From contig JANNLG010000056.1 in NCBI GenBank assembly GCA_031396695.1, forward strand, positions 3,853 through 67,852: DNA of 64,000 nt. Reading direction: 5' to 3'. This document shows, piece by piece, positions 9,393 through 24,833 of the stretch. Both the position numbers and the translations under genes were made by a program. Below the pieces are notes generated by a model. The model was not told the origin of the DNA and ran no database searches. It worked only from the letters and a program-made list of their open reading frames with translations. Origin of the DNA: Deltaproteobacteria bacterium (GTDB lineage: Bacteria > Myxococcota_A > UBA9160 > SZUA-336). Numbering within the stretch: the stretch's first letter is position 1; every line of letters begins with the position of its first letter.

Positions 9393-10865
9393 TTGAGCAG
9401 GTTCCGCACGGCGCGTGTATTGCGCGTTCTGGGTTGCCTCTGTTTGATCGCGTTCAGCACGAGCGCCTGCATGGAAGAGTCGTACGAGGAGCAGTACGCG
9501 GAGGGCGAGATCGACCTTCCCGACGACTTGTACGCGGTGAGCGCGATCGGTGCCGACCACCTGTGGGCGGCGGGCTACTTCGGCGCGATCTACCGCACGA
9601 GCGACGCCGGGAAGAACTGGCGAAAGCTCAACGGTCTCACCGATCAGTCGATCTACGACATCTCGTTCGCGGACGAGAAGAACGGTTGGGCGGTCGGTCG
9701 CCGCGGCTTCGTGATCCACACGACCGACGGCGGCGACACCTGGGAGCTGCAGAGCATCCCGCGCAAGCCGGCGCAGCACTTGTTCGCGGTCAAAGCGATC
9801 AACCCGACCACGGCCTGGGCCGTCGGTGACTGGGGCGGGCGCTACTACACGAGCGACGCGGGCAAGACCTGGCAGGATCGTTCGTTCCTGCTCACCCAGG
9901 ACCACCCGAGCTTCAAGTACCTCTCCGACGACGAGCTCGAGGCCTTCGAGCGCGGCGACAAGCTGTACGACGACATCTTCCTGAACGACGTCTACTTCGC
10001 CGACGACAAGCACGGCTGGATGGCCGGCGAGTACGGGCACACGTACTGGACCGACGACGGCGGCGAGACCTGGAATCACGGCCACATCGCGGGCACGGTG
10101 CGGTTCGAGGAGATCGTCTTTCCGATCGGCGAGAAGAAGGTGCCCAAGGACAAGTGGGAGCAGATCTTCGCCGCGACCGAGATCCTGCTCGACAAGCCCT
10201 ACCTGAAGATCGAGATGGAAGGCCTGATGACGCCGGCGGAGCTCGCCAAGCGTGGCGACACGTTCCTCGCGGACGAGCGCGCGGACGAGATCCAGAAGTT
10301 CCTCGAGAACGAGGGCATCAATCAGGACCGGATCAAGATCCGAAACGCGACGCCGCTCGACCAGGAAGGCGTCGACATGAAGGCGTTCGCGCAGAAGAAG
10401 CTCTCGCCCGTGCCCGCATTGAAGATCGAGGTCATCGAGACTCCGTTCCTGTTCGACGTGAAGTTCAAGGACCCGATGAACGGACTGATCACCGGTCTGG
10501 GCGGGGTGGTGCTCACGTCGAGCGACGGCGGCCGCACGTGGACCTACCTGCCCAGCGATTCGAAGCAAGCGTTGTTCGCGGGCGCCTTCGCGGAGGCGCG
10601 CATGATCACCGTCGGTGAGAAGGGCCAGCGCCGGATCAGCAAGGACGGCGGGCAGACCTGGCTCAAGCTCGGCGAAGAGGACGGCTTCGGCCGCTTCCCC
10701 GCGGACAAGCACGGCTACTTCCGCGATGTCACCTGCGGCACGCCGAGCGTGTGCTGGATGGTCGGCGCCGGTGGCAACGTGATCCGCTCGACCGATGCCG
10801 GCGAGAACTGGTTCGAGATGTTGCCCAAGCCGGAGCCCATCCCGGCCACCGGCGCGGGGGAGTGA
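9393..10865 (+). CDS. Secreted/lipoprotein with Ycf48-like (photosystem II assembly factor-like) BNR/Asp-box beta-propeller repeats
   Basis: Signal peptide VLRVLGCLCLIAFSTSAC followed by repeated S/TDxGxTW Asp-box blades (TSDAGKNW, TTDGGDTW, TSDAGKTW, TDDGGETW, SSDGGRTW, SKDGGQTW). Confidence 0.75.
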   Translation: MSRFRTARVLRVLGCLCLIAFSTSACMEESYEEQYAEGEIDLPDDLYAVSAIGADHLWAAGYFGAIYRTSDAGKNWRKLNGLTDQSIYDISFADEKNGWAVGRRGFVIHTTDGGDTWELQSIPRKPAQHLFAVKAINPTTAWAVGDWGGRYYTSDAGKTWQDRSFLLTQDHPSFKYLSDDELEAFERGDKLYDDIFLNDVYFADDKHGWMAGEYGHTYWTDDGGETWNHGHIAGTVRFEEIVFPIGEKKVPKDKWEQIFAATEILLDKPYLKIEMEGLMTPAELAKRGDTFLADERADEIQKFLENEGINQDRIKIRNATPLDQEGVDMKAFAQKKLSPVPALKIEVIETPFLFDVKFKDPMNGLITGLGGVVLTSSDGGRTWTYLPSDSKQALFAGAFAEARMITVGEKGQRRISKDGGQTWLKLGEEDGFGRFPADKHGYFRDVTCGTPSVCWMVGAGGNVIRSTDAGENWFEMLPKPEPIPATGAGE

Positions 10866-10867
10866 GC

Positions 10868-13800
10868 GTGGCCGACCAAGATCCAGAGAGACCGAAGGTC
10901 CTGATCGAAGAGAACCTGCCGGAGAGCGCGTTCTCGATGCGCTTCGGCCGCCTGGTCATCCGCTACCGGTTCGCCGCGTTGATGACGCTGCTCAGCATCT
11001 CGCTGTTCTTCTCGTTCCCGCTGGTCAACGCCGCCTACTACAACATCACCGCGGCCCAAAGCGAGGACGGCGTCGGCAAGGTCCTGTTGGGCGTAAAGGC
11101 GCGCTTCCGCGTCGACGCCAACATCCGCAAGACCTATCCCGAGCACCCGTACATCCACGCGCAGGACAAGTTCTCCGGGAAGTTCGGATCGGCCTCTTTC
11201 GTCGCGATCGCCGTGATCAAGAAAGAGGGCCAGATCTACGACTACGACTTCCTGCAGAAAGTCTCGCGCGTCACGGACAAGCTCGATCAGGCTCCGAACG
11301 TCAACCACTACCAGGTTCGCAGCCTCTCGCACATCAACACGCGCGTCATCATCATCGAGCCCGACGGCGCGATCGAAGCGGCACCGTTGCTCGAGGAGAT
11401 TCCCGAGGACGAAGCGGAGCTGCAGCAGCTCAAGGAGACCGTGCTCGAGAACCCCGGCCTGATCTACGGCCAGCTCGTGTCACGCGATCACCGCGCGGCG
11501 CTGGTGTCGGCGGGCTTCATCACGCACCGGCTCGACAACAGCAAGGCCTACACGGAGCTGTTCAACTATCTCCAGAACCTGAAGGCTGAAGAAGAGGCCG
11601 ACGGCACCGCCGAGATCTACATCTCGGGCGCGCCTATGGCGACCGGCTACGTGATCGAGAGCCAGTTCGATCTCGTGTACTTCCTGCTGCTCACGATCGT
11701 GCTGCTGTTCTTCCTGTTGCTCGCGTACTTCCGGCGCTTGCACGGCGTGGCGATCCCGATGGTCGCGGGTCTGTCGACGGCGGTCTGGGGCATGGGCATG
11801 ACCGGTTGGATCGGGATCGCGCTCGATCCGCTGATCCTGGTGATTCCGCTCCTGATCACGGCGCGCGCCATCTCGCACACGATTCAGATGGCCGAGCGCT
11901 TCTTCGAGGAGTACGAGGTCGAGTGCACCGTGCGATCCGAGAAGCTCGGTCGCAAGCTCACACCGGCGGAGATCGAGGAGTCGAAGCTCGAGTGCGCGAC
12001 CACGTCGCTCGCCAAGCTCATGCTGCCCGGCATGATCGGCATCCTGACCGACGCCGCGGGTCTCGCGGTGGTCGCGATCACGACGATCCGCACCATGCAG
12101 GAGCTATCGATCTTCGGGTCGTTCTGGGTGGTGGCGATCATCTTCAACGTGATCATCCTGCACCCGATCATGATCGCGTACCTGCCGCCGCCTCACGAGT
12201 TCGCGCACTTCTCGCCGATCTGGATGCAGAAGTTCCTGAAGTGGGCGGGCGAGACGGCGACCGGGACGGTGAGCCGTTGGGTGCTGGTCGGCGGCAACGC
12301 GATCGTGCTGATCCTCGCCACCTGGTACGTGCTGTTCAACTCGACCATCGGCGAGAGCCGGCCGGGCGTGCCGATCTTCTGGCCCGATCATCCGTTCAAC
12401 GTCGCGACCGCGCAGCTCGGCGAGACGTTCGGCGGCGTGGACCAGATGACGGTGTTCGTCGACGGCGACGGCAAGAGCGCGAGCTCCGACGGTCTGGTGA
12501 TCCAGCGCATGGAGGCGCTGCAGCGCTGGATGCGCAAGTACGTCGACCCGGGCGCGACCGTGTCGCTCGTCGACGTGATCAAGCAGTACTGGCTGGTGAA
12601 CCATTACGCGGATCCGAAGTGGGGCTTCGTGCCCGACGCCGCGCAGACGATCGGCGGCATCATCTTCCAGCTCCAGCGCAGCAACATCCCGGGCTTCCTG
12701 CGCCCGTTCCTCACCGACGACGCCGAGGACGCGAACATCACGTTCTTCTTCCGCGACCACAAAGGGAAGACGATCAAGCGCGCGGTCCACTACGCGAACG
12801 AGTTCATCAACGCCAACCCGATGGGCCGCATCAACGTGCGGCTGGTCGAGGACAAGGGCGGCGTGATGGGCGCGATCTACTACCTGTTCGGACCCGTCAT
12901 GTTCCCGCGCCACTCGGGCATGGTGGTCGAGGTCGCGGACATCAACGAGGACCAGAAGATCACGGGCTACCAGCCCGGCACCGCGGTGCAGGTCGGGCGC
13001 TGGACCGAGCGCGCCGACCCCGCGGAGGTCGAGAAGAACGTGATCGCCGGCATCCGCGCGCTGTCGCGCACGAAGCTGCCCGAGATCAAGCTCTCCGATC
13101 GCTTCAAGGAAGACCTCCAGCAAGACAAGAACCGGATGGAGAAGCTCGCCATCAATCTGTCGGCGGAGTTCGACTACCGGATCGAGAACATCTCGATTCC
13201 GGCGGACGAGATCGTCCACGAGTTCGAGACCGTCGCGGATCTGGTCAACCACATCGTCGACCGCTCGGCGTACTTCGTCACCGAAGAGTGGAAGAACGAC
13301 GAGGGCAACATCACCGCGCAGACGATCCGCTACTGCCGGCACTACTGCGGCTACGAGCTGTGGACGCAGAACACCAAGTTCAAGGACGTCTCGTTCAATC
13401 CGCAGCGCACCAACACCTACACGCGCGGCGCGGAGTTCGTGCTCGCGGGCGGGATCATGGGCGTCTACGCGGCGGTGAACGACGAAGTCGAGCGCGGCCA
13501 CGTCGCGAACATCGTGCTGATCTTCATCATCTCGTACCTGTTCGTGGCGATCAGCTACCGCTCCAACCTGGCCGGCCTGTTCGTGCTGTTCAGCATTGCG
13601 GTCGCGACCATGCTCTCGCTCGCCTACATGGCGGTGCGCGAGACGGGGCTCACGATCCAGACGCTGCCGGTGCAGTCGGTCGGCGTGGGCGTCGGAATGG
13701 ACTACGCGGTCTACGTCGCGGACCGGATCCGTCAGGAGTACGCCTGGTGCGGCGACTTCGACGAAGCGATCCGGCGCGCCATCCGCACCACCGGCATGGC

Positions 13801-14056
13801 CGTCTGCTTCACGGCCACGACGCTGATCGCGGGCATCATCGCCTGGTCCTTCAGCGAGCTGCGCTTCCAGGCCGAGATGGCGCAGCTGCTTTCGATCCTG
13901 ATGGGAGTGAATCTGCTGGGCGGGATCCTACTTGTGCCCGCTTGTTTCTCCATCGTGAAGCCCAAGAGCTTCGTCTCCGCGTCACTTGTCGAGGCCACGG
14001 AGCAACAAGAGATGAGCGGGTCGCAGCCGAAGGCCGTCGCCGCGAGCGCCGGATGA
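10868..14056 (+). CDS. RND-superfamily (MMPL/HAE-like) membrane transporter, about 1060 aa
   Basis: Two-fold repeat of hydrophobic 6-TM bundles separated by large periplasmic loops. GTG start 3 nt after the lipoprotein stop. This architecture is typical of RND exporters found beside Ycf48-like proteins. Confidence 0.8.
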   Translation: MADQDPERPKVLIEENLPESAFSMRFGRLVIRYRFAALMTLLSISLFFSFPLVNAAYYNITAAQSEDGVGKVLLGVKARFRVDANIRKTYPEHPYIHAQDKFSGKFGSASFVAIAVIKKEGQIYDYDFLQKVSRVTDKLDQAPNVNHYQVRSLSHINTRVIIIEPDGAIEAAPLLEEIPEDEAELQQLKETVLENPGLIYGQLVSRDHRAALVSAGFITHRLDNSKAYTELFNYLQNLKAEEEADGTAEIYISGAPMATGYVIESQFDLVYFLLLTIVLLFFLLLAYFRRLHGVAIPMVAGLSTAVWGMGMTGWIGIALDPLILVIPLLITARAISHTIQMAERFFEEYEVECTVRSEKLGRKLTPAEIEESKLECATTSLAKLMLPGMIGILTDAAGLAVVAITTIRTMQELSIFGSFWVVAIIFNVIILHPIMIAYLPPPHEFAHFSPIWMQKFLKWAGETATGTVSRWVLVGGNAIVLILATWYVLFNSTIGESRPGVPIFWPDHPFNVATAQLGETFGGVDQMTVFVDGDGKSASSDGLVIQRMEALQRWMRKYVDPGATVSLVDVIKQYWLVNHYADPKWGFVPDAAQTIGGIIFQLQRSNIPGFLRPFLTDDAEDANITFFFRDHKGKTIKRAVHYANEFINANPMGRINVRLVEDKGGVMGAIYYLFGPVMFPRHSGMVVEVADINEDQKITGYQPGTAVQVGRWTERADPAEVEKNVIAGIRALSRTKLPEIKLSDRFKEDLQQDKNRMEKLAINLSAEFDYRIENISIPADEIVHEFETVADLVNHIVDRSAYFVTEEWKNDEGNITAQTIRYCRHYCGYELWTQNTKFKDVSFNPQRTNTYTRGAEFVLAGGIMGVYAAVNDEVERGHVANIVLIFIISYLFVAISYRSNLAGLFVLFSIAVATMLSLAYMAVRETGLTIQTLPVQSVGVGVGMDYAVYVADRIRQEYAWCGDFDEAIRRAIRTTGMAVCFTATTLIAGIIAWSFSELRFQAEMAQLLSILMGVNLLGGILLVPACFSIVKPKSFVSASLVEATEQQEMSGSQPKAVAASAG

Positions 14057-14120
14057 GCGGGGCCGCGGTGGTGGAGGGAGCCGCTGCGGTTTCGCACGTA
14101 TCGTTTGAGAGGGGAATGCT

Positions 14121-17100
14121 ATGAGGGGAAGGCTGACTCAGGGACTTCTTGCCGCGCTGGTCCTCGGCGTTCTGCTGCTCGGCGGCGGGCTCGCACGAAC
14201 GGCTTCGGCCTTCGAGTGGGATCTACCGGGCGAGCGCAAGTTCTCGATCCACGGTTTCTACGAAACGCGGCTGATGTTCGTCGGCTCGGAGTTGCCGATC
14301 AACGGCGCGACCTGGTCGAGCTTCCGGCACGTTCTGTCGACGGAGCTCGAGCTCACGCTCTTCCCCGACGGCTTCGGCCCGTTCGACTCGATGTTCATGT
14401 TCTCGCGCTTCCTGGTCAGCTATGACTGCATCTACACCTACTCCTGCGGCACCTTCAACAGCGCGGATTCGTACGGTGACGACAAGCGCCGAGCGGTACG
14501 TCAGCCGCTCTCGCTGCGCGAGGACGCCAAGAACAACGCGCCGTATTTCGCGGGCCTGCTGAAGTCGACTTACCGCCCCGGCTCGATCGTGTCGCCGCAA
14601 GAGGTCCTGAACCCGAGTCGGCGCTATCGCGACTGCGACAACCCGCCGGGCGTGTTCGCGAACCCGTTTCCGCTGGCGGTGTTCTGCAACCTGAACAGCC
14701 GCTCGCCGCTCGACAACCCGAACAATCAGACCGGCAACAAGACCTGGGAGGTGCGCGCGGGCACGTTCCACCCCTTCACGCGTCCGAGCTTGACCGCCGC
14801 GGCGCGCTCGGCGATCGGCAACGAGGAATACGACCGACTGCAGGGCCTGCTGATCAGCGGCCAGGTTCTGTCGCGTTCTGAGACCGCGTTCCGCCTCACG
14901 CTGCTCGCGGAGGCCGGTGAGGCGCAGGCGCGCGGCGACGAGGACCTCGCCGAAGCGCTGAATGCGCAGGCCGACGCGGTCCTCGGCACGCCCGAGACCA
15001 CCTTCGACGCGAACATCCCGGCGCTCCTGGCCACGCGCCCGGATCCGAACCGCTTCGCGGAGTACGCGAACTCCATGACGCCGGCGCTGCTCAAAGCCAA
15101 GTGGGGCTCCGGCCAGCTGCGCAACCTGGTGTTTCCGTTCCTGGCCACGATCAACACGCCGATCGCGCCGGGTGGCTACTTCAACAACGGCGCGCCGCTC
15201 GACAGTATCGGTCAGTACGACCAGGCGCTGGGCGAAACGCTGAGCGCGAACCTCGGCGGCCTGCCGATCGTGAGCGACGCGGACGGTCAGCCGGTGTTCA
15301 GCGCATCGAACGCGCAGAATCGCGTGAACCCGTTCTTCGTCGGTCCAGACGGCCTACGCGACTCGGCGGACGACTTGCCGTTCGTCACCAACAACCCGGC
15401 TGCTCAGGAGGCCGGCTACCAGCTCGCCACACCGCTCCAGGGAGCGGCCGGCACGCCCGAGAACCTGCTCGCGAGCTTCGACGGCACGTTCGGCCGCAAC
15501 GCGCCGGGAAACGCGGCGCGACCGATCTACGCGCAGGCCGCGCGGATCGTCGTTCCCTCGGCGAGCGATCCAAGCGCGACCAAGATCGTCGAACTCTACG
15601 GCGTGTACAGCAACGAGTATCTCGTGAATCGCGGCTGTGGCGCCGTCTCGGGTAGCTACAACACCGCGACCGGGCAGTGCGTCCGCGCAGGCGGGGACGT
15701 CTCGGCGGAGGCCCAGGCGCGCGGCTGCAGCGTGATCGTGCGCGGCACGCGCGGACAGCAGGTCAACGTCGGCGTCAACGCGGACGGCCAGTGCATCGAG
15801 ATGAACACGACTTCACCGGCGCCCAACTCGCAGCTCCAGTTCGAGGTGCTCGGGCTGCTCGGCGATCTGAACGCGCGGCCGTTCGAAGCCAGCATCGAGC
15901 CGCTCAACACCACCGACTTCCGCGCCGTCGCCGAAGGCGGCGTGAACAACACCATGCCCGCTCGTCCGCGCATGGCGCAGCAGGGTATCGTCTATCAGTC
16001 GCCGGGCGCCCGCCGCGAGTACGAGCAGTACCACGACCTGGTCTCGAACCTGGATCTCAAGTACAGCGTCGACTCGCTGCAGTGGAACCACGGCGCCAGC
16101 CAGCGCGAGCACGAGTTCGCCGAAGGCTACGTCGAGTTCGAAATGGCCGACAGCCAGCTCTACGCGCGCGTCGGCAAGCTGATCGTGGTCTGGGGCAAGA
16201 CGGAGCTGTTCCGCAACCAGGACCGCAACAACCCGCTCGACATCGGCAACGGCATCTTCGCGCCGCTCGAGGAGCAGCGCGTCGGCCAGTGGGCGGTCGA
16301 CCTGACGATTTCGCCCGAGGCGTTCATGCGCGTGGGGCCCGTCGAGGATCTGCGCCTCGAGCTGCTCACGATCGTGAATCCGTTCGAGCCCACGGATCTG
16401 GGCAAGTGCGGCGAGGGAACCGCGATCGAGCTGATCTGTCTGAAGAGCTTCGGCGCGATGGCCAACGGCCTGGCCGGCATCGGCGTGATCGGCGAGCACC
16501 GACCCTACGACGACTATGCGGGTATCGAGCGCTGGGATTTCGGCGCACGCATCGAGGGTCGCTTCGACCGCTTCACCTTCGCGATCTCCGACTTCTGGGG
16601 CTGGGACGACGGCTTCTACCTCGATCTCGTGCAGCAGTACGAGCGCACCTCCGACATCACGACCGGCGCACCGCTCTCCGTCGGCAGCCGCGGCAACTCG
16701 ACCGGTTGCACGATTCGCACGAACTCCGAGGGCGAAGCCGTCGGGCCGAACAACATCGCGGGCGACGGCGACGACGACTTCCCGAGCGCGGGCAACTGTC
16801 TGCTCTGGGATCCGCCGGAGACCCCGGACGCGGCGCAGCTGCTGCGGCCGACCGACTCCGTGGCGGCGCTGCAGAACGTCAACCAGACGCTGTTCCACTC
16901 GCTGTGCGCCTACACCTTCGATCCGGATGAAGGTTTTTGCGCGTTCGATCGCCTGAACTACCCGCTCGAGTTCGGTCTGATCTCGAACATCATCTCCGGC
17001 CTCGGCGTGCTCGGGGCCGCCGTGACCGATGGCGTGGAGTCGATTCAGCAGAAGCGCCTGGATGGCCGCACGAGCGTCGTCCAGCGTGGCTCGCCCACCA

Positions 17101-19625
17101 TCCTGACACGCGGATTCCTGGCGATCGAACCGCTTGCGCGGCAGGACCAAGCCTACCAGGACCTCGGCTTGAGCCTTCAAAACGCCTCGGCTGCATTGCT
17201 GGGTTGCGGTGTGGCCTACGCCTCGCCCTGCAGCGGCGCGCAGCAGACGCAATGGGCCCGCGACCCGGCGATCGCCGCAGATCTGACGCGCGACCCGACG
17301 CTCGGTCCAGCCACGGTCGGCGGCATCGACTTGATGAATGCGGACGCGAGCGTCGTCACCCAGGAGTTCGTCGGCCTGAAGGCGCTCTCACCAGGCGCGC
17401 TGGTTGGAACGCGGCTCAACAACGCTGGCGCACTCTACTACCAGCCGGGGGTCAACTTCAGCCGCGACGGCCAGCAGGACATGAACATCGACGAGGACTT
17501 CAGTCGACAGGGTCGCGAGCTCAACCCGCCGATTGCAGTTTCGGCGCTCGAGAGCTCGGGCGAGTACCTGAACTTGACCCCCGACGACGTCATCGACCTG
17601 GGTGTGCAGGGCCGCGCGGAGTACCAGATCCAAGCCGGCAACATCCTCGAAGCGGATAGCTGGGTCGAGCCGATGCCGTGGACGGTCAACGAGGAGCTGC
17701 TCGAAAAGTACGGCGCGATCGTGTTCAACGCCGATCCGAGCAACGTGCTCGATCTCGATAGCCCGCTGAACAAATGGAACTTGATCGATCCGAACCAGGA
17801 CCCGAACGACCTCGCGAACATCCAGTACTCGGACATCGACGGCGAGTACTGCGCGCGCTGGATGAACTCGACGGACACGGACATCTCCACGCCGTTCAAC
17901 CTCGGGTGCACCGCGCTCGAGACGGTCTCGGCGAACTTCGAGCGGCTGCTGATCAGCATCGAGGAAATCGGCTTCGACCGTGTGTTCGACGCGCCTGAGA
18001 GCCTTCAGGAACTCGGCTACTGGTCGGAGTCGAACACCGCGCGCCAGGCCGCCGGCGATCCGGTCTCGGGTTCCGACGGAATCTACGCGCGCAATCAGTT
18101 CGTGATCTCGAGCGAGCAGATGGATTTCGACGTGGTCGCCGCCGCGCCCACGGGCGATTCGACTTTCATTTTCGTGGACATCGCCGCGAGCGAGACTCCG
18201 CAGCAAGCCGCCGCGCGAACGCTGCTCGAGTTTGATCCCCAGGAAGGGTGTCTGAGCGCGTTCTGCTACCTGCAGGTCAACAACGTCCTGGTCGATCCCG
18301 ACGACGCCGCTCCGGAGGGCCGCGACTTGATCCTCGCGATGCCGGTCGGCTTCACGGTCGACATCATGTCGCCGATCGTGGATCCGAACGACCCGAATGG
18401 CCCAGTCAACCCCAACGATCCGAATCAGCAGTTCGAGAACACCGGCTTCGACCGCAAGGTGAACCCGGCCGCGCTCCAGTACCTGCAGCAGACGGCGGGC
18501 GACACTTCGCTGCGGCGCCTGCTCGCGTCGCAGGTGATCGCGGTCGAGACGCCGACCGGCATCGAGTACGTGCAGATGAGCAACGAGCAGCGCGATCAGC
18601 TGCTCGGAGAGCTCGGCGACGCGCTCAACCGCGGTCGCGACATGGACGGCGACGGCAGCTCGGATCTCGACCGCAACCGCGACTCGGTCTGGGACGGGAT
18701 CGACGACTACAGCGGCGGTGGACCGATCACCGACGACAACATCCTGTGCGGCACCGGCATCCCCGGCGATCCACTCCAGGACGGCGTTCAGTACAGCCCG
18801 TTCCGCAGGGACCAGGACATGAACTCCGAGGCCTTCCGGGCGATGTTCCCGAACGGTCTGCCCCCGCGTTCGCCGGTGTTCTGCCGCGGCGTGTCGGGCA
18901 TCCTCAGCGCCACCAACCAGACGCTGCCGATTCGCAAGGCGGGCGGCGACGGCCGCTACGGCCGCCGCGACTTCCTGTGGCAGAACGGACGCCAGGTCGC
19001 GTTCAACTACCAGAAGCGGAACGTCATGGGCTTCGGTCTCGACTTCGCGGAAGACGTCACGAAGACGAGCTGGGGTCTGGAGTTCTCGTGGATGGCGAAC
19101 AAGCTGCTGCCGAACAACTTCGAGTACGACGGCTATTCGCAGACCGACGAGATGGTGCTGTCGATCTCCGTCGACCGGCCAACCTTCTTCAACTTCCTGA
19201 ACCCGAACCGCAGCTTCTTCATGAACCTGCAGATGTTCCTGCGCTACCTGCCCGACTACGAGGGCGGCCGTGGCGGCAACGACGGCATGTACGGCGCTGC
19301 GGGCGCATCGCTCACCGGCAACATCGCGTTCACTTTCTTCACCGGCTACTTCCAGGATCGCCTCGCGCCGCGCGTCACGATCCTGTACGCGCCGTGGGAG
19401 TCGCAGGGCGCGTTGCTCACGGGCCTGTCGTACCGCTGGAACGACGCGTTCTCGACCAGCATCGGCTGGACGCAGTTCTTCGGTCACATCTACAAGCAGC
19501 AGGGCGGATACTTCCCGATCGCCCAGTACGGCTCGGTCGCCGACTACAACGGACCGGTCCTGCGCGGCGTCGCGCCGGTCCTGTACCGAGACCAGGCCGA
19601 AGTCCGGATTCGCTACACCTGGTAA
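14121..19625 (+). CDS. Giant (1834 aa) secreted outer-membrane protein; DUF1302-like beta-barrel N- and C-terminal segments flanking an insert of over 1000 aa rich in Asp, Asn and Gly
   Basis: Signal peptide LLAALVLGVLLLGGGLARTASA. N-terminal FSIHGFYETRLMFVG resembles DUF1302 starts. The C-terminal roughly 300 aa show alternating-hydrophobic beta strands and end in ..VRIRYTW (aromatic terminal residue typical of outer-membrane barrels). The internal sequence carries DPNDPNGPVNPNDPN and DMDGDGSSDLDRNRDSVWDGIDD (thrombospondin-3-like calcium-binding motif). GAGAGGGG precedes the ATG. Confidence 0.75.
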   Translation: MRGRLTQGLLAALVLGVLLLGGGLARTASAFEWDLPGERKFSIHGFYETRLMFVGSELPINGATWSSFRHVLSTELELTLFPDGFGPFDSMFMFSRFLVSYDCIYTYSCGTFNSADSYGDDKRRAVRQPLSLREDAKNNAPYFAGLLKSTYRPGSIVSPQEVLNPSRRYRDCDNPPGVFANPFPLAVFCNLNSRSPLDNPNNQTGNKTWEVRAGTFHPFTRPSLTAAARSAIGNEEYDRLQGLLISGQVLSRSETAFRLTLLAEAGEAQARGDEDLAEALNAQADAVLGTPETTFDANIPALLATRPDPNRFAEYANSMTPALLKAKWGSGQLRNLVFPFLATINTPIAPGGYFNNGAPLDSIGQYDQALGETLSANLGGLPIVSDADGQPVFSASNAQNRVNPFFVGPDGLRDSADDLPFVTNNPAAQEAGYQLATPLQGAAGTPENLLASFDGTFGRNAPGNAARPIYAQAARIVVPSASDPSATKIVELYGVYSNEYLVNRGCGAVSGSYNTATGQCVRAGGDVSAEAQARGCSVIVRGTRGQQVNVGVNADGQCIEMNTTSPAPNSQLQFEVLGLLGDLNARPFEASIEPLNTTDFRAVAEGGVNNTMPARPRMAQQGIVYQSPGARREYEQYHDLVSNLDLKYSVDSLQWNHGASQREHEFAEGYVEFEMADSQLYARVGKLIVVWGKTELFRNQDRNNPLDIGNGIFAPLEEQRVGQWAVDLTISPEAFMRVGPVEDLRLELLTIVNPFEPTDLGKCGEGTAIELICLKSFGAMANGLAGIGVIGEHRPYDDYAGIERWDFGARIEGRFDRFTFAISDFWGWDDGFYLDLVQQYERTSDITTGAPLSVGSRGNSTGCTIRTNSEGEAVGPNNIAGDGDDDFPSAGNCLLWDPPETPDAAQLLRPTDSVAALQNVNQTLFHSLCAYTFDPDEGFCAFDRLNYPLEFGLISNIISGLGVLGAAVTDGVESIQQKRLDGRTSVVQRGSPTILTRGFLAIEPLARQDQAYQDLGLSLQNASAALLGCGVAYASPCSGAQQTQWARDPAIAADLTRDPTLGPATVGGIDLMNADASVVTQEFVGLKALSPGALVGTRLNNAGALYYQPGVNFSRDGQQDMNIDEDFSRQGRELNPPIAVSALESSGEYLNLTPDDVIDLGVQGRAEYQIQAGNILEADSWVEPMPWTVNEELLEKYGAIVFNADPSNVLDLDSPLNKWNLIDPNQDPNDLANIQYSDIDGEYCARWMNSTDTDISTPFNLGCTALETVSANFERLLISIEEIGFDRVFDAPESLQELGYWSESNTARQAAGDPVSGSDGIYARNQFVISSEQMDFDVVAAAPTGDSTFIFVDIAASETPQQAAARTLLEFDPQEGCLSAFCYLQVNNVLVDPDDAAPEGRDLILAMPVGFTVDIMSPIVDPNDPNGPVNPNDPNQQFENTGFDRKVNPAALQYLQQTAGDTSLRRLLASQVIAVETPTGIEYVQMSNEQRDQLLGELGDALNRGRDMDGDGSSDLDRNRDSVWDGIDDYSGGGPITDDNILCGTGIPGDPLQDGVQYSPFRRDQDMNSEAFRAMFPNGLPPRSPVFCRGVSGILSATNQTLPIRKAGGDGRYGRRDFLWQNGRQVAFNYQKRNVMGFGLDFAEDVTKTSWGLEFSWMANKLLPNNFEYDGYSQTDEMVLSISVDRPTFFNFLNPNRSFFMNLQMFLRYLPDYEGGRGGNDGMYGAAGASLTGNIAFTFFTGYFQDRLAPRVTILYAPWESQGALLTGLSYRWNDAFSTSIGWTQFFGHIYKQQGGYFPIAQYGSVADYNGPVLRGVAPVLYRDQAEVRIRYTW

Positions 19626-19649
19626 CGACGACTCGGTAGACTTCGAGAG

Positions 19650-19693
19650 GGCGCCACTCGGCCGCGAGCCGAGAGGCGCCTTCGCATTTTCGG
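19650..19693 (+). terminator. Putative intrinsic terminator after the giant outer-membrane protein gene
   Basis: GGCGCCACTCGGC-CGCGA-GCCGAGAGGCGCC forms a 13-bp stem with one mismatch, followed by TTCGCATTTTCGGGGG. It lies 25 nt after the TAA stop. Confidence 0.45.
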
Positions 19694-19700
19694 GGGACGC

Positions 19701-20327
19701 ATGGCGCTACGCATCGCGGTGTTGCTGTCGGGCGGCGGGACCACGCTCGAGAACTTGTTCGCCGAGCGGGCGCAGGGCCGGCTCGACGTCGACGTGAGCG
19801 CGGTGATCTCCTCCAAGCCCGAGGCCTTCGGGCTCGAGCGCGCGCGCAAGCACGGCGTGGCGGCGCATGCCGTCGATCGCCGCGCCTTCGACGACGAGCG
19901 CGCCTTCAACGACGCGCTGCACCGACGGCTCGCCCAGGATCCGCCGGATCTGCTCGTGCTCGCCGGCTTCCTGTCGCGCATCGAGCTGCGCGGGTACAAC
20001 GGGCGCGCGATGAACACACACCCGTCGCTGATTCCGGCCTTCTGCGGCAAGGGCTTCTACGGCGAACGCGTCCACCGGGCGGTGCTCGAGTATGGCGCCA
20101 AAGTGACGGGCGCGACCATCCACTACTGCGACGAGCAGTACGACACCGGCCCGATCATCGTGCAGCAGGCAATCCCGGTGCTCGAGGACGACACGCCCGC
20201 CTCGCTCGCCGCGCGCGTCGCAGAGGTCGAGCGCGCGCTCTATCCGCGCGCGATCCAGCTCCACGCCCAGGGCCGCCTGCGCATCGAGGGCCGACGGGTA
20301 CGCGTGTTGCCCCCGACCTCCGGCTGA
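19701..20327 (+). CDS. purN: Phosphoribosylglycinamide formyltransferase PurN
   Basis: IAVLLSGGGTTLENL.., ..LVLAGFLSRI.., NTHPSLIPAFCGKGFYG and the HYCDEQYDTGPII motif (formyl-transferase family). Confidence 0.9.
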   Translation: MALRIAVLLSGGGTTLENLFAERAQGRLDVDVSAVISSKPEAFGLERARKHGVAAHAVDRRAFDDERAFNDALHRRLAQDPPDLLVLAGFLSRIELRGYNGRAMNTHPSLIPAFCGKGFYGERVHRAVLEYGAKVTGATIHYCDEQYDTGPIIVQQAIPVLEDDTPASLAARVAEVERALYPRAIQLHAQGRLRIEGRRVRVLPPTSG

Positions 20328-20401
20328 GGTCCCCGTACCCGCCTTCTAGAGGACGCAACTCCCCCATCAAGCCGCCGCCCGCGCGGGCCGATCCTCCGTT
20401 G

Positions 20402-21796
20402 ATGGACAAGCGGGTTCTGGTGGTCGACGACGACCGCTTGATACGCGAGATGACGCGCGATGCGCTCGTCCAGGAGGGCTTTCGCGTAGCCACCGCGGCG
20501 ACCGGCCGCGAGGCGCTGTCCCGGCTCGGCGACGAGGGTCCGTTCGACCTGGTGATCACGGACCTCTCCATGCGCGAGATGGACGGCTTGGAGCTGCTCG
20601 AGCGCGTGAAGCGCGCCTCGCCACGCACCGAGGTGATCGTGCTGACGGGCTACGCGTCGCTCGAGAGCGCGCTGCAGGCCATGCGCCTGGGCGCCGCCGA
20701 CTATCTGCGCAAGCCGGTGTCCGCGCCCGAGATTACGTACTGCGTGAAACGCACGCTCTTGCGCCGGCGGCTGATGGACGAGAACGAGGCGCTGCGCGGC
20801 TGCGTGCAGGCGTTCGAGGCCGCGCGCGCGCTGGCGTCGTGCCTGGAGAGTGGCGACGTGCTGCCGATGGCGCTCGACATCGTCCTGCGGCTGACCGGCC
20901 GCGGCCGCGCGGTGGGGCGACTGATCGAGCTGCCGTCGCGCACGGGCGAGGGCATCGAGCTGGTCGGCTTCCCCGCGGACACGCTGGCGGAGCTGCGCTC
21001 GCAGATCGAGCTCGGCAAGCTGTTCGATCCGGCCGAGCTCGAACGGCCGGGCATCTCGAGCGGCGACGCGCTAGCGGGCGCGCTCTCGACGCTCGGGCTC
21101 GAAGACCCGCAGCTCTTGCCGCTGCCGATCCGGCTCGAGGGACGCGTGGTTGGCGGGATCTGGATCTTCTCCGACGGGCGACCCTTCGACGCCGACGAGC
21201 GGCAGCGCGCCGAGCTCGTGGTCGAGCAGGCGGAGCTCGCGCTGATCAACGCCGAGCGTTTCCTGCAGGCGCGCGAGAAGGCGTTCATCGACGACGTCAC
21301 GTCGCTGTACAACGCGCGCTATCTGCTATCGGCGCTCGACCGCGAGGTGAACCGCGCCTCGCGTTCGCAGGCCAAGCTGTCGGTGCTGTTTCTCGATCTC
21401 GATCGCTTCAAGACCGTGAACGACCGCTTCGGTCACCTGGTCGGCTCGCGCGTGCTGCGTGAGCTGGGGGTGCTGCTGCAGGAGTCGGTGCGCGCGATCG
21501 ACACCGTGGGCCGCTACGGCGGCGACGAGTTCACCATCCTGCTCGTCGACACGGGCAAGGACGGCGCGCTCTCGGTGGCCGATCGCATCCGGCAATCGGT
21601 CGCCAACCACGTGTTCGGCGGCGAGCGCGGGCTCGACCTGCGGCTCACGATCTCCGTCGGCGTGTCCACCTTCCCGGCGCACGGAGACACGCGCGAGCGA
21701 CTGCTCGATCTGGCCGACAAGGCCATGTATCTGGCGAAGGCGCTCGGCCGCAATCACGTCTGCTCCGCCGACGATCTCTCCAACTCGCGCGGCTAG
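20402..21796 (+). CDS. Response-regulator receiver plus linker plus GGDEF diguanylate cyclase
   Basis: REC domain (VLVVDDDRLIREM...DLVITDLSMREMDG) and an intact GGDEF active site RYGGDEFTILL with upstream FLDLDRFKTVND. Confidence 0.85.
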   Translation: MDKRVLVVDDDRLIREMTRDALVQEGFRVATAATGREALSRLGDEGPFDLVITDLSMREMDGLELLERVKRASPRTEVIVLTGYASLESALQAMRLGAADYLRKPVSAPEITYCVKRTLLRRRLMDENEALRGCVQAFEAARALASCLESGDVLPMALDIVLRLTGRGRAVGRLIELPSRTGEGIELVGFPADTLAELRSQIELGKLFDPAELERPGISSGDALAGALSTLGLEDPQLLPLPIRLEGRVVGGIWIFSDGRPFDADERQRAELVVEQAELALINAERFLQAREKAFIDDVTSLYNARYLLSALDREVNRASRSQAKLSVLFLDLDRFKTVNDRFGHLVGSRVLRELGVLLQESVRAIDTVGRYGGDEFTILLVDTGKDGALSVADRIRQSVANHVFGGERGLDLRLTISVGVSTFPAHGDTRERLLDLADKAMYLAKALGRNHVCSADDLSNSRG

Positions 21797-21971: not shown

Positions 21972-23756
21972 TTGTCGCGACTCGATCCACTCGGCGATCT
22001 GCGCCGAACACACTTCTGTGGAAGCCTGCGTCCGAGCGACGTCGGCCGCGAAGTCGTGCTGTGCGGCTGGGTGCGCAAGCGCCGCGACCACGGCGGCGTG
22101 ATCTTCGTCGACCTGCGCGACCGCACCGGCCTCGCGCAGGTCGTGTTCAAACCCGACGCGCAGCTCGAAGCGCACGGCAAGGCGCAGGCGGTCCGCGCCG
22201 AGTGGGTGCTGCTGGTGCGCGGCGTGCTCGCGCGCCGCGACGGCGACGTCGTGAACCCGAACCTGCCCACCGGCGAGGTCGAGCTGGTCGCGCACGAGGT
22301 GCGGATCCTCAACACCGCCACCACGCCGCCGTTCGAGATCGAGGACGACGTCGTGCACGACGAGAGCAGTCGGATGAAATACCGCATCCACGAGCTGCGC
22401 CGGCCGGTGATGCAGAAGCGCCTGCAGGTCCGGCACTCGCTCGCGCAAGCGCTGCGCACCGCCTGCACCGAGCGGGGACTGCTCGAGATCGAGACGCCGA
22501 TCCTGGCGCGCGCCACGCCGGAGGGCGCGCGCGACTTCCTGGTGCCGAGCCGTGTGCAGCACGGCAGCTTCTACGCGCTGCCGCAATCGCCGCAGATCCT
22601 GAAGCAGATGCTGATGGTCGCGGGTTTCGACGGCTATTTTCAGATCGCGCGCTGCTTTCGGGACGAGGACCAGCGCGCCGATCGCCAGCTCGAGTTCACG
22701 CAGCTCGATCTGGAGATGTCGTTCGTCGGCGTCGAGGACGTGCTCGACCTGCTCGAGTTCCTGACCGTGCGCGCCTACCGCGACGTGCTCGGCGTCGAGC
22801 TCGCGCGCCCGTTCGATCGCGTTTCGTACGCCGACGCGATGGCGCGCTACGGCTCCGACAAGCCGGAGCGGCGCATCGCGCTCGAGATCGTGGAGCTCTC
22901 GGATCTGCTGCGGAAGAGCGAGTTCAAGGTCTTCGCGGGCGCGCTCTCGAGCGGCGGCGTCGTGCGCGGGTTGCCGATACACGACGCGGCCGCGCTCTCG
23001 CGCAGCGAGCTCGATCGCCTGAACGAACAGGCGCGAACCTACGGCGCGAAGGGCCTGGCCTGGGTGCGCGTTTCCGACGACGGATCGTGGCAGTCGCCGA
23101 TCGCGAAATTCCTCAGCGACGACGAGAAGGCGGCGATCGGCAAGCGCGCCGGACTGCGGCCCGGAACTGTGATCCTGTTCGGCGCCGATCGCGAGAAGGT
23201 CGTGTGCGACGTGCTCGGCCGACTGCGCCTCGAGCTCGGCCAGAAGCTCGGCCGCTACGACGGCCGCCCCTGGGATCCGCACTTCGTGGTCGGCTTCCCG
23301 CTCTTCGAAGAGGGCGACGACGGCAAGCTCACCTACATGCACATGCCGTTCGTCGCGCCGCTCGAGACCGAGATCGCGAAGCTCGACAGCGATCCGAAGA
23401 GCGTGATCGCCACGCACTACGACCTGGTCATGAACGGCGTCGAGCTCGGCTCGGGGAGTCTGCGCAACCACCGCTCCGATCTGCAGCTCAAGATCCTCGC
23501 GATCATGGGCTATTCGGAAGAAGAGGCGCGCGCGCGCTTCGGCTTCATGCTCGACGCGCTCGACACGGGCGCGCCGCCGCACGGCGGCTTCGCGTTCGGC
23601 TTCGATCGCTTCGCGCTGATGCTCGCCGGCGGCGACAGTCTGCGCGACGTGATCGCGTTCCCGAAGACCCAGCGTGCGCAGGACAGCTTCATGGAGTCGC
23701 CCAGCGTCGTCGACCCGGGCCAGCTCAAAGAGCTCGGCCTACGCCTGCGTGAGTAG
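21972..23756 (+). CDS. aspS: Aspartate--tRNA ligase AspS
   Basis: Class II aaRS motifs (FYALPQSPQ.., QIARCFRDEDQRADRQLEFTQLDLEMSF, GGFAFGFDRFALMLAG). Probable TTG start at 21972; the ORF-track start is an upstream run-on. Confidence 0.85.
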   Translation: MSRLDPLGDLRRTHFCGSLRPSDVGREVVLCGWVRKRRDHGGVIFVDLRDRTGLAQVVFKPDAQLEAHGKAQAVRAEWVLLVRGVLARRDGDVVNPNLPTGEVELVAHEVRILNTATTPPFEIEDDVVHDESSRMKYRIHELRRPVMQKRLQVRHSLAQALRTACTERGLLEIETPILARATPEGARDFLVPSRVQHGSFYALPQSPQILKQMLMVAGFDGYFQIARCFRDEDQRADRQLEFTQLDLEMSFVGVEDVLDLLEFLTVRAYRDVLGVELARPFDRVSYADAMARYGSDKPERRIALEIVELSDLLRKSEFKVFAGALSSGGVVRGLPIHDAAALSRSELDRLNEQARTYGAKGLAWVRVSDDGSWQSPIAKFLSDDEKAAIGKRAGLRPGTVILFGADREKVVCDVLGRLRLELGQKLGRYDGRPWDPHFVVGFPLFEEGDDGKLTYMHMPFVAPLETEIAKLDSDPKSVIATHYDLVMNGVELGSGSLRNHRSDLQLKILAIMGYSEEEARARFGFMLDALDTGAPPHGGFAFGFDRFALMLAGGDSLRDVIAFPKTQRAQDSFMESPSVVDPGQLKELGLRLRE

Positions 23757-24833
23757 CTCCGGCGCTTCCTTCGCGGCCTCGTAGCCCTTCCACGAGTGCG
23801 ACGCGAAGTCGTACAGTTTGCACGCGCGCGTGGTGCGCAGGTAGTCGGCGAAGCGGAAGCTCCGTTCGCGCACGACGTCGCCGAAGTCGCGCCGGATCGC
23901 GTCGCACGCTTCGGGCAGGCGATAGAAGGGGATGCGCATGTCCACATGGTGAGGCACGTGCAGCATGATGTTGTGCATGAAGAAGTTCACCCAGGCGGGC
24001 ACGTGCAGGATCGTGGTGCCCTCCATCTGACCCTTGAAGCGCGTCCACTCGCGGCGGCTCTGCCAGGCGATCTCGGGCGAGATGTGGTGCACGTACACGG
24101 CGATGCCGATCACGTAGTTCCACAGTGCGAACGGCACCGCGAAGACCTTGAACCAGAGCCAGAGCGCGCCACCGACGCTTCCGTACAAACCGATGCCCGC
24201 GGCGAGCAGGGCGACGTGGATGACGGCCGCGTAGGCCCACACGATCGCGCGGTCGCGCTTCACGTCCGCGGCGATCTTGGCCGGGGCGTCGAAGCGCATC
24301 ATGTTCTTCCACCAGATGTCCCAGCCGTAGTACACGCCGGCTCCGAGCCACGACCACTTCACGCGGTGGAGCGCGCGCTGCACGGGGGTCATGGCGCGAT
24401 ACGACTCGGGCGTGGCGGGATGCCAGACGTAGTCCATCACCTCGCGCACGGTGTGGCCGTGGTGGATGCGGTTGTGCCCGAACACCCAGGCCTCGTACAC
24501 GTGCAGCGACGGCAGCATGGCCGCCTGCCCGACGATGTAATTCATGCGCTTGCTCGCGAACAGCGCGCCGTGCGCGGCGTCGTGTCCGATGATGAAGAGC
24601 GCGCTGATCGAGAGCGCCGTCAGCACCCAGAGCGGCACCAGCAGGAAGATCGAATCGACCGCGAAGAGCAGTGCGACCATGCCCGCATAGATCGCGATGT
24701 CGCGCGCGAAGTAGAGCAACCCCAAGGCGGTCGGGTTCTCGTAGACGTGCTCGGGGAGCTTGTCGATCACGTCGCTGATCGTGGGACCGGACTCGACCTC
24801 TTCAGGCGCCGCGGATTCGATGGGACTTGCCAT
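23739..24833 (-). CDS. Membrane fatty-acid desaturase family protein
   Basis: Three His boxes ([20 protein letters not shown]) within multi-TM segments. Probable ATG at 24833 (MASPIES..). Confidence 0.8.

Follow-up and report, generated by a model that had tools for sequence, protein, structure and literature searches.

The gene studied here raises the question of what an outer-membrane protein of 1834 residues is built from, on which side of the membrane its bulk resides and which process it serves. A preliminary description had read the protein as a beta-barrel of the DUF1302 type, split by one insert of more than 1000 residues carrying Asp-rich, thrombospondin-type-3- or EF-hand-like calcium-binding repeats. 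We analyzed the gene, its homologues and its surroundings within a contiguous stretch of 64,000 nucleotides of Myxococcota DNA (the window). On balance we consider it probable that an approximately 18-strand barrel of the DUF1302/AmeA family forms the outer part of an AmeABCD-like RND/BNR envelope transport system and that two of its loops, L2 and L5, have grown into a surface module.

A barrel in three pieces and two inserts

The gene is an ATG-started, stop-free frame with the ribosome-binding-site-like sequence GAGAGGGGA located 6 nt 5' of the start codon (Table 1). As read from the sequence, a signal peptide is combined with an alternating-hydrophobic, aromatic C-terminus (..VRIRYTW; RYTW or RYSF across homologues), i.e. 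with the beta-signal typical of BAM-assembled proteins. Both termini are kept in all homologues. Near-full-length homologues number 28 and come from separate assemblies, 24 of them at 45-78% and four at 35-37% identity, and invariant residues are spread over the entire length of the alignment. Full-length conservation across about two dozen independent Myxococcota metagenome assemblies spans 35-82% identity. The description as an outer-membrane protein of 1834 residues is borne out by the continuous frame, the signal peptide, the barrel-type ends and these homologues.

Barrel-like strands had been located only in the first 100 or so and the last 300 or so residues. Both ends are indeed of the barrel type, but a third, DUF1302-matching piece is present at residues 625-840. 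Because of this third segment there is not a single insert of more than 1000 residues but two, I1 with 439 and I2 with about 786 residues, on either side of a 216-residue stretch of barrel. The three pieces (residues 1-185, 625-840 and 1627-1834) sum to 609 residues, the normal size of a DUF1302 protein. When the whole protein and its five segments were compared with Pfam and NCBIfam, the middle segment alone gave a match (DUF1302) and the inserts gave none. The native protein reached 20.3 bits (E 3e-4) on Pfam DUF1302 (PF06980), below the gathering cutoff of 23.2, and the sole part detected was residues 660-730 against profile positions 140-215; among members of the giant family, 8 of 16 matched this profile at E<=0.1 (best 4.9e-8). 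The barrel-only concatenation of 609 residues, on the other hand, scored 27.9 bits and exceeded the cutoff. A barrel-only profile recovered more than 200 PF06980-positive Myxococcota proteins with E around 1e-140 and down to 1e-145, and in phmmer searches 119 PF06980-positive proteins covered only residues 21-135, 625-860 and 1580-1834. With its total length and with 439 and 786 residues in its inserts, the protein departs from the roughly 550-650 residues and short loops expected of a DUF1302/AmeA-type barrel.

Barrel and module were modeled separately, as deletion and fusion constructs. Structure prediction, which had been proposed as a check, returned a barrel: the barrel-only AlphaFold2 model (pLDDT 77, pTM 0.79) has about 18 long strands according to DSSP, a count that requires construct residues 349-354 and 367-376 to be read as one broken strand. 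DUF1302 has been reported to form an 18-strand barrel (PMC13499233; bioRxiv 10.64898/2026.03.07.710327). A sequence-profile search of the PDB with the family alignment yielded nothing at E<=1, whereas Foldseek matched the model to OmpF, chitoporin and OccAB1 at probability 1.0. AlgE, OccAB/OprD (18 strands) and the general porins are structural analogues only (Foldseek probability 1.0, target-normalized TM about 0.5, identity 7-10%) and, unlike the giant protein, have no loop inserts of hundreds of residues. The same channel analogues were reported for DUF1302 (PMC13499233), which has been assigned to a barrel type of its own, distinct from the prototypical ones (bioRxiv 10.1101/2022.04.13.488089).

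Table 1. Features of the giant gene and of the two genes upstream, with positions in the window
Feature	Residues	Positions	Strand	Remarks
Ycf48-like BNR beta-propeller	490 aa	9393..10865	+	Signal/lipoprotein-like N-terminus; weak OmpA-like C-terminal region
RND inner-membrane transporter, MMPL-type, putatively HAE3	~1062 aa	10868..14056	+	From GTG 10868 (putative); mechanical ORF starts 10751
Giant ORF: outer-membrane barrel, DUF1302-like, with giant inserts in two loops	1834 aa	14121..19625	+	
Signal peptide, Sec-type	1-30	14121..14210	+	Cut after ASA (..ARTASA/FEW); read by eye; kept in homologues; modeled as helix 7-24
N-terminal barrel segment	31-185	14211..14675	+	Strands 1-3 (39-55, 64-81, 88-102; pLDDT 94-97), then base of L2 with Cys103-Cys109
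Insert I1	186-624 (439 aa)	14676..15992	+	Strand 3-strand 4 connection (loop L2)
Middle barrel segment	625-840 (216 aa)	15993..16640	+	About six strands (4-9); Pfam DUF1302 match, model strands
Insert I2	841-1626 (786 aa)	16641..18998	+	Strand 9-strand 10 connection (loop L5)
Low-complexity run DPNDPNGPVNPNDPNQQ	1421-1437	18381..18431	+	Hypervariable indel region; absent or short in most homologues
Conserved acidic cluster (DMDGDGSSDLDRNRDSVWDGIDD...ITDDNILCGTGIPGD)	1507-1550	18639..18770	+	Candidate calcium site
C-terminal barrel segment	1627-1834	18999..19625	+	Nine strands (10-18); ends RIRYTW and stop codon

Across the homologues, the lengths of the barrel segments are constant and those of the inserts variable; the N-terminal segment, for instance, comprises about 185 residues in 16 homologues. 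The middle segment holds the most conserved motif of the family, VWGKTELFRNQDRNNPLD, as well as SDFWGWDD. The C-terminal segment is modeled as nine long strands with turns of 4-9 residues and loops of up to 35. All three pieces recur in a class of more than 100 Myxococcota DUF1302 proteins of 950-1060 residues, which share residues 21-135 of the N-terminal segment and cover 97-100% of the middle and 92-99% of the C-terminal one. The notion that DUF1302 proteins typically have about 600 residues thus fits AmeA with its 605 residues (PMC6394551), but not this class. Its members (e.g. P0061, annotated as 'DUF1302 family protein') are the closest barrel relatives of the giant (E about 1e-140) and have inserts in the two corresponding positions, which are smaller and total only about 400 residues; they occur in loci with two tandem DUF1302 genes and DUF1329, without BNR/RND. 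I1 was not found in this class. Some members align with the giant at about residues 563-620, 841-1099 and 1585-1626, and some contain the I2 motif LLGCG..Y.S.C..GIDL.NA.SV. This partial alignment to the inserts points to expansion of the loops in place. The last 45 or so residues of I2 (1580-1626) are common to ordinary DUF1302 proteins, and the giant-specific span is about residues 860-1580. Taken together, the data support the view that the protein is a DUF1302-type outer-membrane barrel broken by a very large non-barrel module.

The I1+I2 fusion was modeled as one compact body (pLDDT 84.1, pTM 0.84) without a fold match in the PDB. A search for similarity to adhesin or S-layer families, suggested in the preliminary description, gave no hit for the module at the level of sequence or fold. 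Loops L2 and L5 are therefore predicted to fold jointly into one compact module of about 1,200 residues with no known fold. The module is cysteine-rich, with 11 sequence-adjacent cysteine pairs whose members lie 5-45 residues apart and which probably form disulfides. It also exists free of any barrel, in paralogues that bear Sec signal peptides. In one of these, P0029, I1 is joined straight to I2 by a linker of about 10 residues: query residues 186-624 align to its residues 51-440 with 47% identity and I2 to 450-1206 with 55%, and the middle barrel segment is removed exactly, as in the other barrel-less paralogues. Since the module is found as secreted, barrel-free proteins, we conclude that it folds autonomously, and these natural soluble versions open it to study on its own. 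Some paralogues end in TSP3, dockerin or TSP3_bac/LDL-B domains, which are typical of extracellular proteins. A MYXO-CTERM tag on the paralogues was considered and rejected; there is a weak match to MtsC in the TSP3 part alone and a Cys-rich tail, but no hydrophobic anchor. Derivation of the barrel-less proteins from the giants is no more than provisional, because the neighbor-joining tree of the module is midpoint-rooted, lacks bootstrap support and omits P0036.

The BNR and RND genes upstream

Clusters of DUF1302, DUF1329, BNR and RND genes are widespread and strongly affect fitness when cells face fatty esters, detergents or terpenes, and we know of no family member with an experimental structure. 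Systems of the AmeABCD type transport hydrophobic or amphiphilic molecules. The protein encoded first in the locus matches Pfam PSII_BNR (E 4e-32), BNR and OmpA (E 0.0025) as well as NCBIfam Ycf48 (E 7e-35), and corresponds to AmeC of Castellaniella defragrans and PP_2018 of Pseudomonas putida. The second has about 12 hydrophobic segments, matches Pfam MMPL (E 1e-17) and reaches 93 bits (E 1e-26) on TIGR00921 (HAE3), far under the curated cutoff of 351.9; it is the putative counterpart of AmeD and PP_2019. We infer that it starts at GTG 10868, because this codon lies 2 nt past the BNR stop codon and is preceded by a GGGGGAG ribosome-binding site, and because an orthologue in another giant locus (L001) has 1058 residues. 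The order BNR, RND, giant is kept in nine complete giant loci, down to about 40% identity and with gaps of <=65 bp. Two loci (L010 and L020) have no RND gene upstream of the giant, and at a third (L011), a second giant copy within one genome, neither BNR nor RND is nearby. A scan of positions 9000-20500 found no promoter-like sites and two terminator-like sites, the latter below the level of shuffled sequences.

DUF1329 was not detected by tblastn in the 64-kb window nor within 9 kb of the giant gene at any of 14 giant loci, whereas 21 of 61 loci of the class of about 1000 residues have an adjacent DUF1329 gene. As this AmeB-type partner is missing from these neighborhoods, the genes do not represent a complete AmeABCD set. 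A DUF1329 domain fused into the giant, RND or BNR protein was also considered and rejected: the best BLASTP matches had E 1.1-1.8 over short stretches, and no LolA-like fold was matched.

The AmeABCD system of C. defragrans is a tetrapartite HAE3-RND system that confers monoterpene tolerance and Nile Red efflux (PMC6394551). Its DUF1302 barrel, AmeA, and the giant both have a signal peptide, and both are encoded alongside a BNR protein (COG4447) and an RND transporter, which in AmeABCD is of the HAE3/COG1033 type and at the giant locus is putatively so. They differ in size (605 versus 1834 residues), in that AmeABCD includes the LolA-like AmeB (DUF1329), and in gene order, which is BNR-RND-barrel at the giant locus; the giant is only weakly similar to the Pfam model. 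The partners of the giant are also larger, with 490 versus 316 residues for the BNR and about 1062 versus 787 for the RND protein. DUF1302, DUF1329, COG4447 BNR and COG1033/HAE3 RND proteins are tied by cofitness (bioRxiv 10.1101/072470), and growth of P. putida on Tween 20 as well as predicted complexes link these families (bioRxiv 10.1101/2020.07.04.188060; PMC10866462). The same four families, with cofitness, are represented by PP_0765/PP_0766 with PP_2018/PP_2019 in P. putida and by Sama_1588-1591 in Shewanella; in these sets DUF1302 is predicted to dock DUF1329 and BNR to dock RND, and transport of amphiphiles or envelope components has been proposed (bioRxiv 10.1101/072470; 10.1101/2020.07.04.188060; PMC10866462). 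The barrels of both organisms have ordinary loops and always function with DUF1329, to which the barrel gene is linked. The giant lineage is a natural variant in which the barrel gene has the pump gene, and not that of the LolA-like carrier, as its linked partner and in which a huge extra module is present.

Sidedness and role of the module

Three strands, counted from the N-terminus, precede I1 and nine, counted back from the C-terminus, follow I2. Given this DSSP strand count, and with the N- and C-terminus taken as a rule to be periplasmic, both inserts fall in odd-to-even, extracellular connections (L2 and L5), and the putative periplasmic turns of the barrel model are all <=10 residues long. 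Surface exposure of the module, already suggested in the preliminary description, is therefore graded as most likely on the basis of strand parity in the model and of the signal-peptide-bearing paralogues with TSP3 or dockerin tails. If it is truly exposed, no other extracellular domain known to us that is carried by loops of a bacterial beta-barrel would come near the module in size. How a chain of about 1,200 residues, with some 9-11 disulfides, is exported through two loops would then become a problem in its own right, and we know of no precedent for a disulfide-rich domain of this size that passes the outer membrane as part of two loops.

That problem would be spared if the module were periplasmic and sat below the barrel, where it would replace the LolA-like DUF1329/AmeB as the bridge from the barrel to BNR and RND. 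The missing DUF1329 at the giant loci and its frequent adjacency to the shorter paralogues fit such an arrangement, the eleven probable disulfides would form naturally in the periplasm, and in P. putida DUF1329 is predicted to touch the RND pump as well as the barrel (PMC10866462). We nevertheless judge a periplasmic module to be unlikely. It would provide an example of a carrier function built into a barrel; either location would inform how such pumps bridge the envelope.

In the surface-module arrangement that we prefer, extracellular loop L2, which follows strand 3, would have grown to 439 residues and L5, which follows strand 9, to about 786. The RND pump and its BNR partner would draw on the proton gradient to carry an amphiphilic cargo through the periplasm and deliver it to the barrel, with which they would be in physical contact. 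The module might then lie over the barrel mouth as a cap or vestibule in which the cargo is received, held or presented, or captured if transport is directed inward.

In type V secretion (autotransporters, intimin/invasin), a barrel is covalently bound to a large surface domain that crosses the outer membrane. There, the passenger extends a barrel of 12-16 strands at the N- or C-terminus, and autotransporter passengers tolerate cysteine pairs that are close in sequence, as are those of the giant. The giant differs in that the exported mass would belong to two internal loops, in an 18-strand barrel from an unrelated family, and no autotransporter domains were detected in the 1834-residue protein. 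We tentatively put forward, as a possibility well short of probable, that the disulfide-rich domain with its new fold is a loop-embedded passenger: self-folding, brought to the surface by the barrel it belongs to or together with it, capping an RND-fed lipid or hydrocarbon channel without a LolA-like carrier, and freed as secreted paralogues by precise loss of the three barrel pieces. Such a passenger would represent an unrecognized route of self-export.

A quite improbable alternative is that the barrel serves mainly as a membrane anchor and that the surface module acts as an adhesin, in cell-cell cohesion or in matrix binding, separately from RND transport. It would suit the barrel-less paralogues, which pair the module with TSP3 repeats, dockerin or LDL-B/DUF4215 and in which the TSP3 part is weakly similar to the cell-cohesion protein MtsC in NCBIfam, and also the three exceptional loci that lack RND or both partners. 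It is hard to reconcile with the tight BNR, RND, giant order in nine loci and with the missing match to any adhesin or S-layer fold. Moreover, the most conserved motifs of the barrel are retained, which argues for a working channel.

Still less probable, to the point of being very doubtful, is that one foreign calcium-binding megadomain of more than 1000 residues with TSP3/EF-hand-like repeats was grafted into a normal DUF1302 barrel of 600 residues. The two Asp-rich strings on which this was based are present, DPNDPNGPVNPNDPNQQ at residues 1421-1437 and DMDGDGSSDLDRNRDSVWDGIDD at 1507-1529, and Asp accounts for 9.7% of I2. The second string opens a conserved acidic cluster with invariant D1517, D1521, D1525, D1528, D1529, D1538, D1539, C1543 and D1550, which is also kept in the barrel-less paralogues. 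Repeats are another matter: the 1834-residue protein has only one DxDxDG motif, within this cluster, and TSP_3, TSP3_bac and EF-hand profiles gave no match at E<=1 with the whole protein nor at E<=10 with I2 alone. The DPNDPN run is hypervariable, and the TSP3 repeats of the paralogues sit in private C-terminal tails outside the common module. The anatomy of a single graft is largely refuted by the two inserts with 216 residues of barrel between them, and some DUF1302 proteins of about 1000 residues align with parts of both. What stands of the calcium claim is the cluster at residues 1507-1550, a candidate site that would probably bind calcium and thereby stabilize the module.

Finally, a chimeric assembly or a chance open frame can be practically discounted: GC content in the window is 63-71% and long spurious ORFs crowd its other frames and strands, but it is even along the gene, the barrel and module models are both confident, and full-length homologues that share the five-part layout are found on over 20 independent contigs, which stem from different samples. 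The claim that the architecture is new for DUF1302 has held: it is not described in the surveyed papers that mention DUF1302 or DUF1329, and all homologues are named 'hypothetical protein' in the databases. It is so far restricted to a few uncultured Myxococcota, all carriers of the giant gene being MAGs of this group.

Conservation and five-part layout of the gene

Because the GC-rich DNA of the window (local GC 63-71%) yields many long spurious ORFs, conservation was the decisive test for the gene of the 1834-aa outer-membrane protein, here called the giant. The frame noticed in the preliminary description is unbroken, with the RBS-like sequence GAGAGGGGA 6 nt 5' of its ATG, and the product begins with a signal peptide of Sec type (MRGRL...ARTASA followed by FEW) and has ...VRIRYTW as its C-terminus. 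Among 5.8 billion proteins searched there were 28 near-full-length homologues, 24 of 1780-1865 aa with 45-78% identity and four more with 35-37%, all from separate metagenome assemblies and, where named, labelled 'hypothetical protein [Myxococcota bacterium]'. Invariant residues in their alignment are spread over the entire length. Judged from these homologues the gene is real and conserved, and both an artefactual ORF and a chimera are ruled out. Giants occur in about a dozen of 185,579 species-representative genomes, all of them Myxococcota or 'delta proteobacterium' MAGs, the nearest being 82% identical.

Barrel strands had been placed at both ends of the protein, around a single barrel-free insert. 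The ends hold, but the sole Pfam match to DUF1302 (PF06980) on the native protein is a weak stretch in the middle, away from the ends (aa 660-730 against profile positions 140-215; 20.3 bits, cutoff 23.2). BLASTP against P0029, a member of a paralogue class of ~1370 aa (P0025-P0030), aligned aa 186-624 of the giant with 51-440 and aa 841-1626 with 450-1206; aa 1-185, 625-840 and 1627-1834 are wholly absent from this class. The paralogues thus carry the two interior regions, with a linker of about 10 residues between them, and lack the three other pieces, and the giant carries two inserts, I1 (aa 186-624) and I2 (aa 841-1626), split by the barrel piece aa 625-840. Concatenated, the three pieces measure 609 aa, an ordinary DUF1302 size, and score 27.9 bits with Pfam DUF1302, above the cutoff. 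In 16 homologues their lengths are constant (about 185/216/208 aa) and those of the inserts vary (386-465 and 735-882 aa). With a barrel-only profile, over 200 Myxococcota proteins were retrieved at E ~1e-140, all PF06980-positive and 950-1060 aa long (the ~1000-aa class), and phmmer with 119 of these covered the giant solely at aa 21-135, 625-860 and 1580-1834. These comparisons show the five-part layout of three barrel pieces and two inserts and, by transitive homology, membership of the DUF1302 superfamily.

Predicted barrel and insert module

A barrel-only model (aa 1-185, 625-845 and 1580-1834; alignment of 76 sequences) reached pLDDT 77 and pTM 0.79 and has 18 strands, one of them broken. 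Foldseek matched it with probability 1.0 to porins and to the 18-strand channels chitoporin and OccAB1, so that structure prediction bears out the proposed barrel. For DUF1302 proteins, 18 strands have been reported (PMC13499233; bioRxiv 10.64898/2026.03.07.710327), the latter source, a preprint, giving 18 in its Results and 16 in its Discussion, an inconsistency that touches the strand count adopted for the giant. Three strands from the N-terminus precede I1, which places it in loop L2, and nine strands counted back from the C-terminus place I2 in loop L5. To our knowledge, the termini of all BAM-assembled barrels are periplasmic, and with these odd strand counts both inserts would lie in extracellular connections. 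In the model, connections assigned to the periplasm are all of ≤10 residues and the long ones are all outside. From strand parity, we consider it probable that the module formed by I1 and I2 is extracellular.

A model of the fused inserts (aa 186-624 and 841-1585, 1184 aa; alignment of 36 sequences; pLDDT 84.1, pTM 0.84) points to one compact alpha/beta body, in keeping with I1 and I2 lying on the same side. The module is without known fold: Foldseek returned nothing at E below 1 and a sequence-profile search of the PDB no match. Its 22 cysteines form 11 pairs, 5-45 residues apart; as they are sequence-adjacent and mostly conserved, they suggest disulfides.

The calcium-binding repeats of the preliminary description proved unsupported, since DxDxDG occurs once, at aa 1507, TSP_3 and EF-hand profiles have no match in the giant, and the DPNDPN run falls within an indel region that is hypervariable. 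The paralogues carry their TSP3 repeats in C-terminal tails of their own, outside the common module. The motif at aa 1507 starts an acidic cluster (D1517, D1521, D1525, D1528, D1529, D1538, D1539, D1550) that is strongly conserved, also in the barrel-less paralogues, and is a reasonable calcium-site candidate; one calcium-stabilised site in the module is possible.

Features of the window, and predicted strands of the barrel-only model (aa, construct numbering)
Feature	Position	Strand	Remark
Lipid-related genes (fatty-acid desaturase, CMAS-like SAM methyltransferase, ABC1/UbiB-type kinase)	23739-24968, 24982-26712, 7841-9145	-, +, -	flank the giant locus
Ycf48-like BNR propeller	9393-10865	+	490 aa; weak OmpA-like C-terminal region
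HAE3/MMPL-type RND transporter	10868 (probable GTG start)-14056	+	directly upstream of giant
Giant	14121-19625	+	1834 aa
Ankyrin-repeat ORF	37749-40367	+	872 aa
ORF with alpha/beta hydrolase match	42829-46716	+	1295 aa
Barrel, N-terminal group	39-55, 64-81, 88-102		model
Barrel, middle group	227-236, 241-248, 284-291, 302-312, 349-376 (broken), 379-401		model; after long gap
Barrel, last group	nine strands, last 651-660		model; after second long gap

Barrel-less paralogues and origin of the inserts

The module also exists without a barrel. Barrel-less relatives all start with signal peptides and carry at their C-termini a TSP_3 and Cys-rich tail (P0025-30, P0035, P0036, P0157), a dockerin type I (P0172) or four TSP3_bac repeats with LDL-B and DUF4215 (P0177), which shows that the module folds by itself and argues for an extracellular working environment. 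After these domains P0177 (2077 aa) ends in ...PPVGKGALAVLLLTAASLGWRRL..., by sequence a candidate PEP-CTERM- or MYXO-CTERM-type sorting tail. A rough NJ tree of the module, midpoint-rooted and with no support values, puts the P0025-30/P0035 clade inside the giants as sister to the window's clade; this nesting provisionally suggests that the free form came from a duplicated giant that lost its three barrel pieces. The module is rare: when 1.84 billion cluster representatives were searched exhaustively with phmmer, only 117 matched at E<=1e-3, of which 51 reached E<=1e-30. One MAG (CAVPHD010000003.1 / contig_34018) holds both a giant beside BNR and RND genes (L007) and, ~250 kb off, the free copy P0029 (L003, 10001-14116), next to a gene for a PrsW-like protease and not far from one for an SpvB/RHS toxin-like protein.

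P0061 and P0038 of the ~1000-aa class have inserts at both of the giant's insert sites, though smaller ones (BLASTP). Because islands of similarity to the giant's inserts occur there (LLGCG..Y.S.C..GIDL.NA.SV and an ARPR motif), we read the interior as probable stepwise loop expansion, not a foreign-domain graft. The I2 interior (about aa 860-1100) was recovered by phmmer in only a few percent of the 119 proteins. The single calcium-binding graft first envisaged is contradicted by the anatomy of the giant and is largely refuted. At loci L004 (3853-7779) and L005 (4593-7934) a gene of the ~1000-aa class stands in tandem with a second DUF1302-like gene, which is larger (1308 and 1113 aa), so DUF1302 proteins of Myxococcota form a size continuum between ~600 and more than 1900 aa. 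This conserved tandem locus has DUF1329 nearby in divergent orientation and adjoins topoisomerase I and a two-component system.

Gene neighbourhood and proposed role

The BNR, RND and giant genes are separated by 2 bp and 64 bp. Nine complete giant loci, the most distant at ~40% identity, keep this order (tblastn), which shows synteny; the contig of the homologue P0012 retains ABC1 kinase (-), BNR, RND, giant and purN. At L010 BNR adjoins the giant directly, without an intervening RND gene, at L020 neither lies within 9 kb upstream, and one genome (MAG MFD10007.bin.2.43; L011 and L012) has two giants, only one of them after BNR-RND. The BNR protein may carry a lipoprotein signal (..AFSTSAC).

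We know of no solved structure or proven substrate for any DUF1302 family member. DUF1302, DUF1329 (LolA-like), COG4447 BNR and COG1033 RND genes cofit in several bacteria, and export of an envelope component was proposed for the set (bioRxiv 10.1101/072470). In Castellaniella defragrans the tetrapartite HAE3 RND system AmeABCD comprises AmeA (DUF1302, 605 aa), AmeB (DUF1329, 451 aa), AmeC (BNR, 316 aa) and AmeD (RND, 787 aa), and strains deleted for it tolerate monoterpenes less well and accumulate more Nile Red (PMC6394551). Growth of Pseudomonas putida on fatty esters and Tween 20 depends on all four genes (bioRxiv 10.1101/2020.07.04.188060); AlphaFold co-folding suggests that its DUF1329 contacts barrel and pump and that BNR binds the pump (PMC10866462). 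ECLIPSE reports a barrel of 18 strands that resembles AlgE and OccAB, with an ipTM of 0.84 between DUF1302 and DUF1329 (PMC13499233).

The DUF1302 family and the type of system are already known. The window's RND and BNR proteins are larger than AmeD and AmeC, with ~1062 aa for RND, including a ~390-aa stretch between hydrophobic segments (ORF aa ~530-917), and 490 aa for BNR. Unlike in AmeABCD, the giant's barrel is linked to BNR-RND without DUF1329: neither the window nor the 9 kb around any of 14 giant loci contains a gene for it, and giant, RND and BNR proteins have no similarity to it. Of 61 loci from the ~1000-aa class, 21 have a neighbouring DUF1329 gene, in most cases as a tandem DUF1302 x2 plus DUF1329 arrangement, and BNR and RND are absent from all of these.

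We propose that the giant would be the outer-membrane barrel of an AmeABCD-like system, with L2 and L5 expanded into one ~1,200-aa, disulfide-rich, possibly calcium-stabilised surface module of new fold. This module may cap the channel mouth and receive, hold or capture amphiphilic cargo moved by the pump; we infer the coupling to the pump, the cargo type and the direction of transport. The main rival, a periplasmic module standing in for the missing AmeB, appears unlikely. That the barrel is a mere anchor for an adhesive module seems a long shot given the retained BNR-RND order. For the proposed surface module, new aspects are its size and two-loop construction, its fold, the BNR-RND linkage without DUF1329 and the apparently derived free paralogues. 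As the preliminary description held, the architecture is undescribed: databases name it 'hypothetical protein' only, without annotating its features, and the papers surveyed that mention the DUF1302/DUF1329 families do not describe it. The case, a prediction throughout and in uncultured organisms, should be of interest to those who study RND transport or the biogenesis of the outer membrane.

The lipid-related flanking genes are syntenic in L001; a functional link to the operon is speculative, as the housekeeping genes purN, RR-GGDEF and aspS intervene. In the 1295-aa ORF the hydrolase match is confined to the C-terminal ~270 aa, the first ~1000 aa having no Pfam match. The 872-aa ORF consists almost wholly of ankyrin repeats (Pfam Ank_2 E 1e-166, 12 stretches), an unusually long array for a bacterium.
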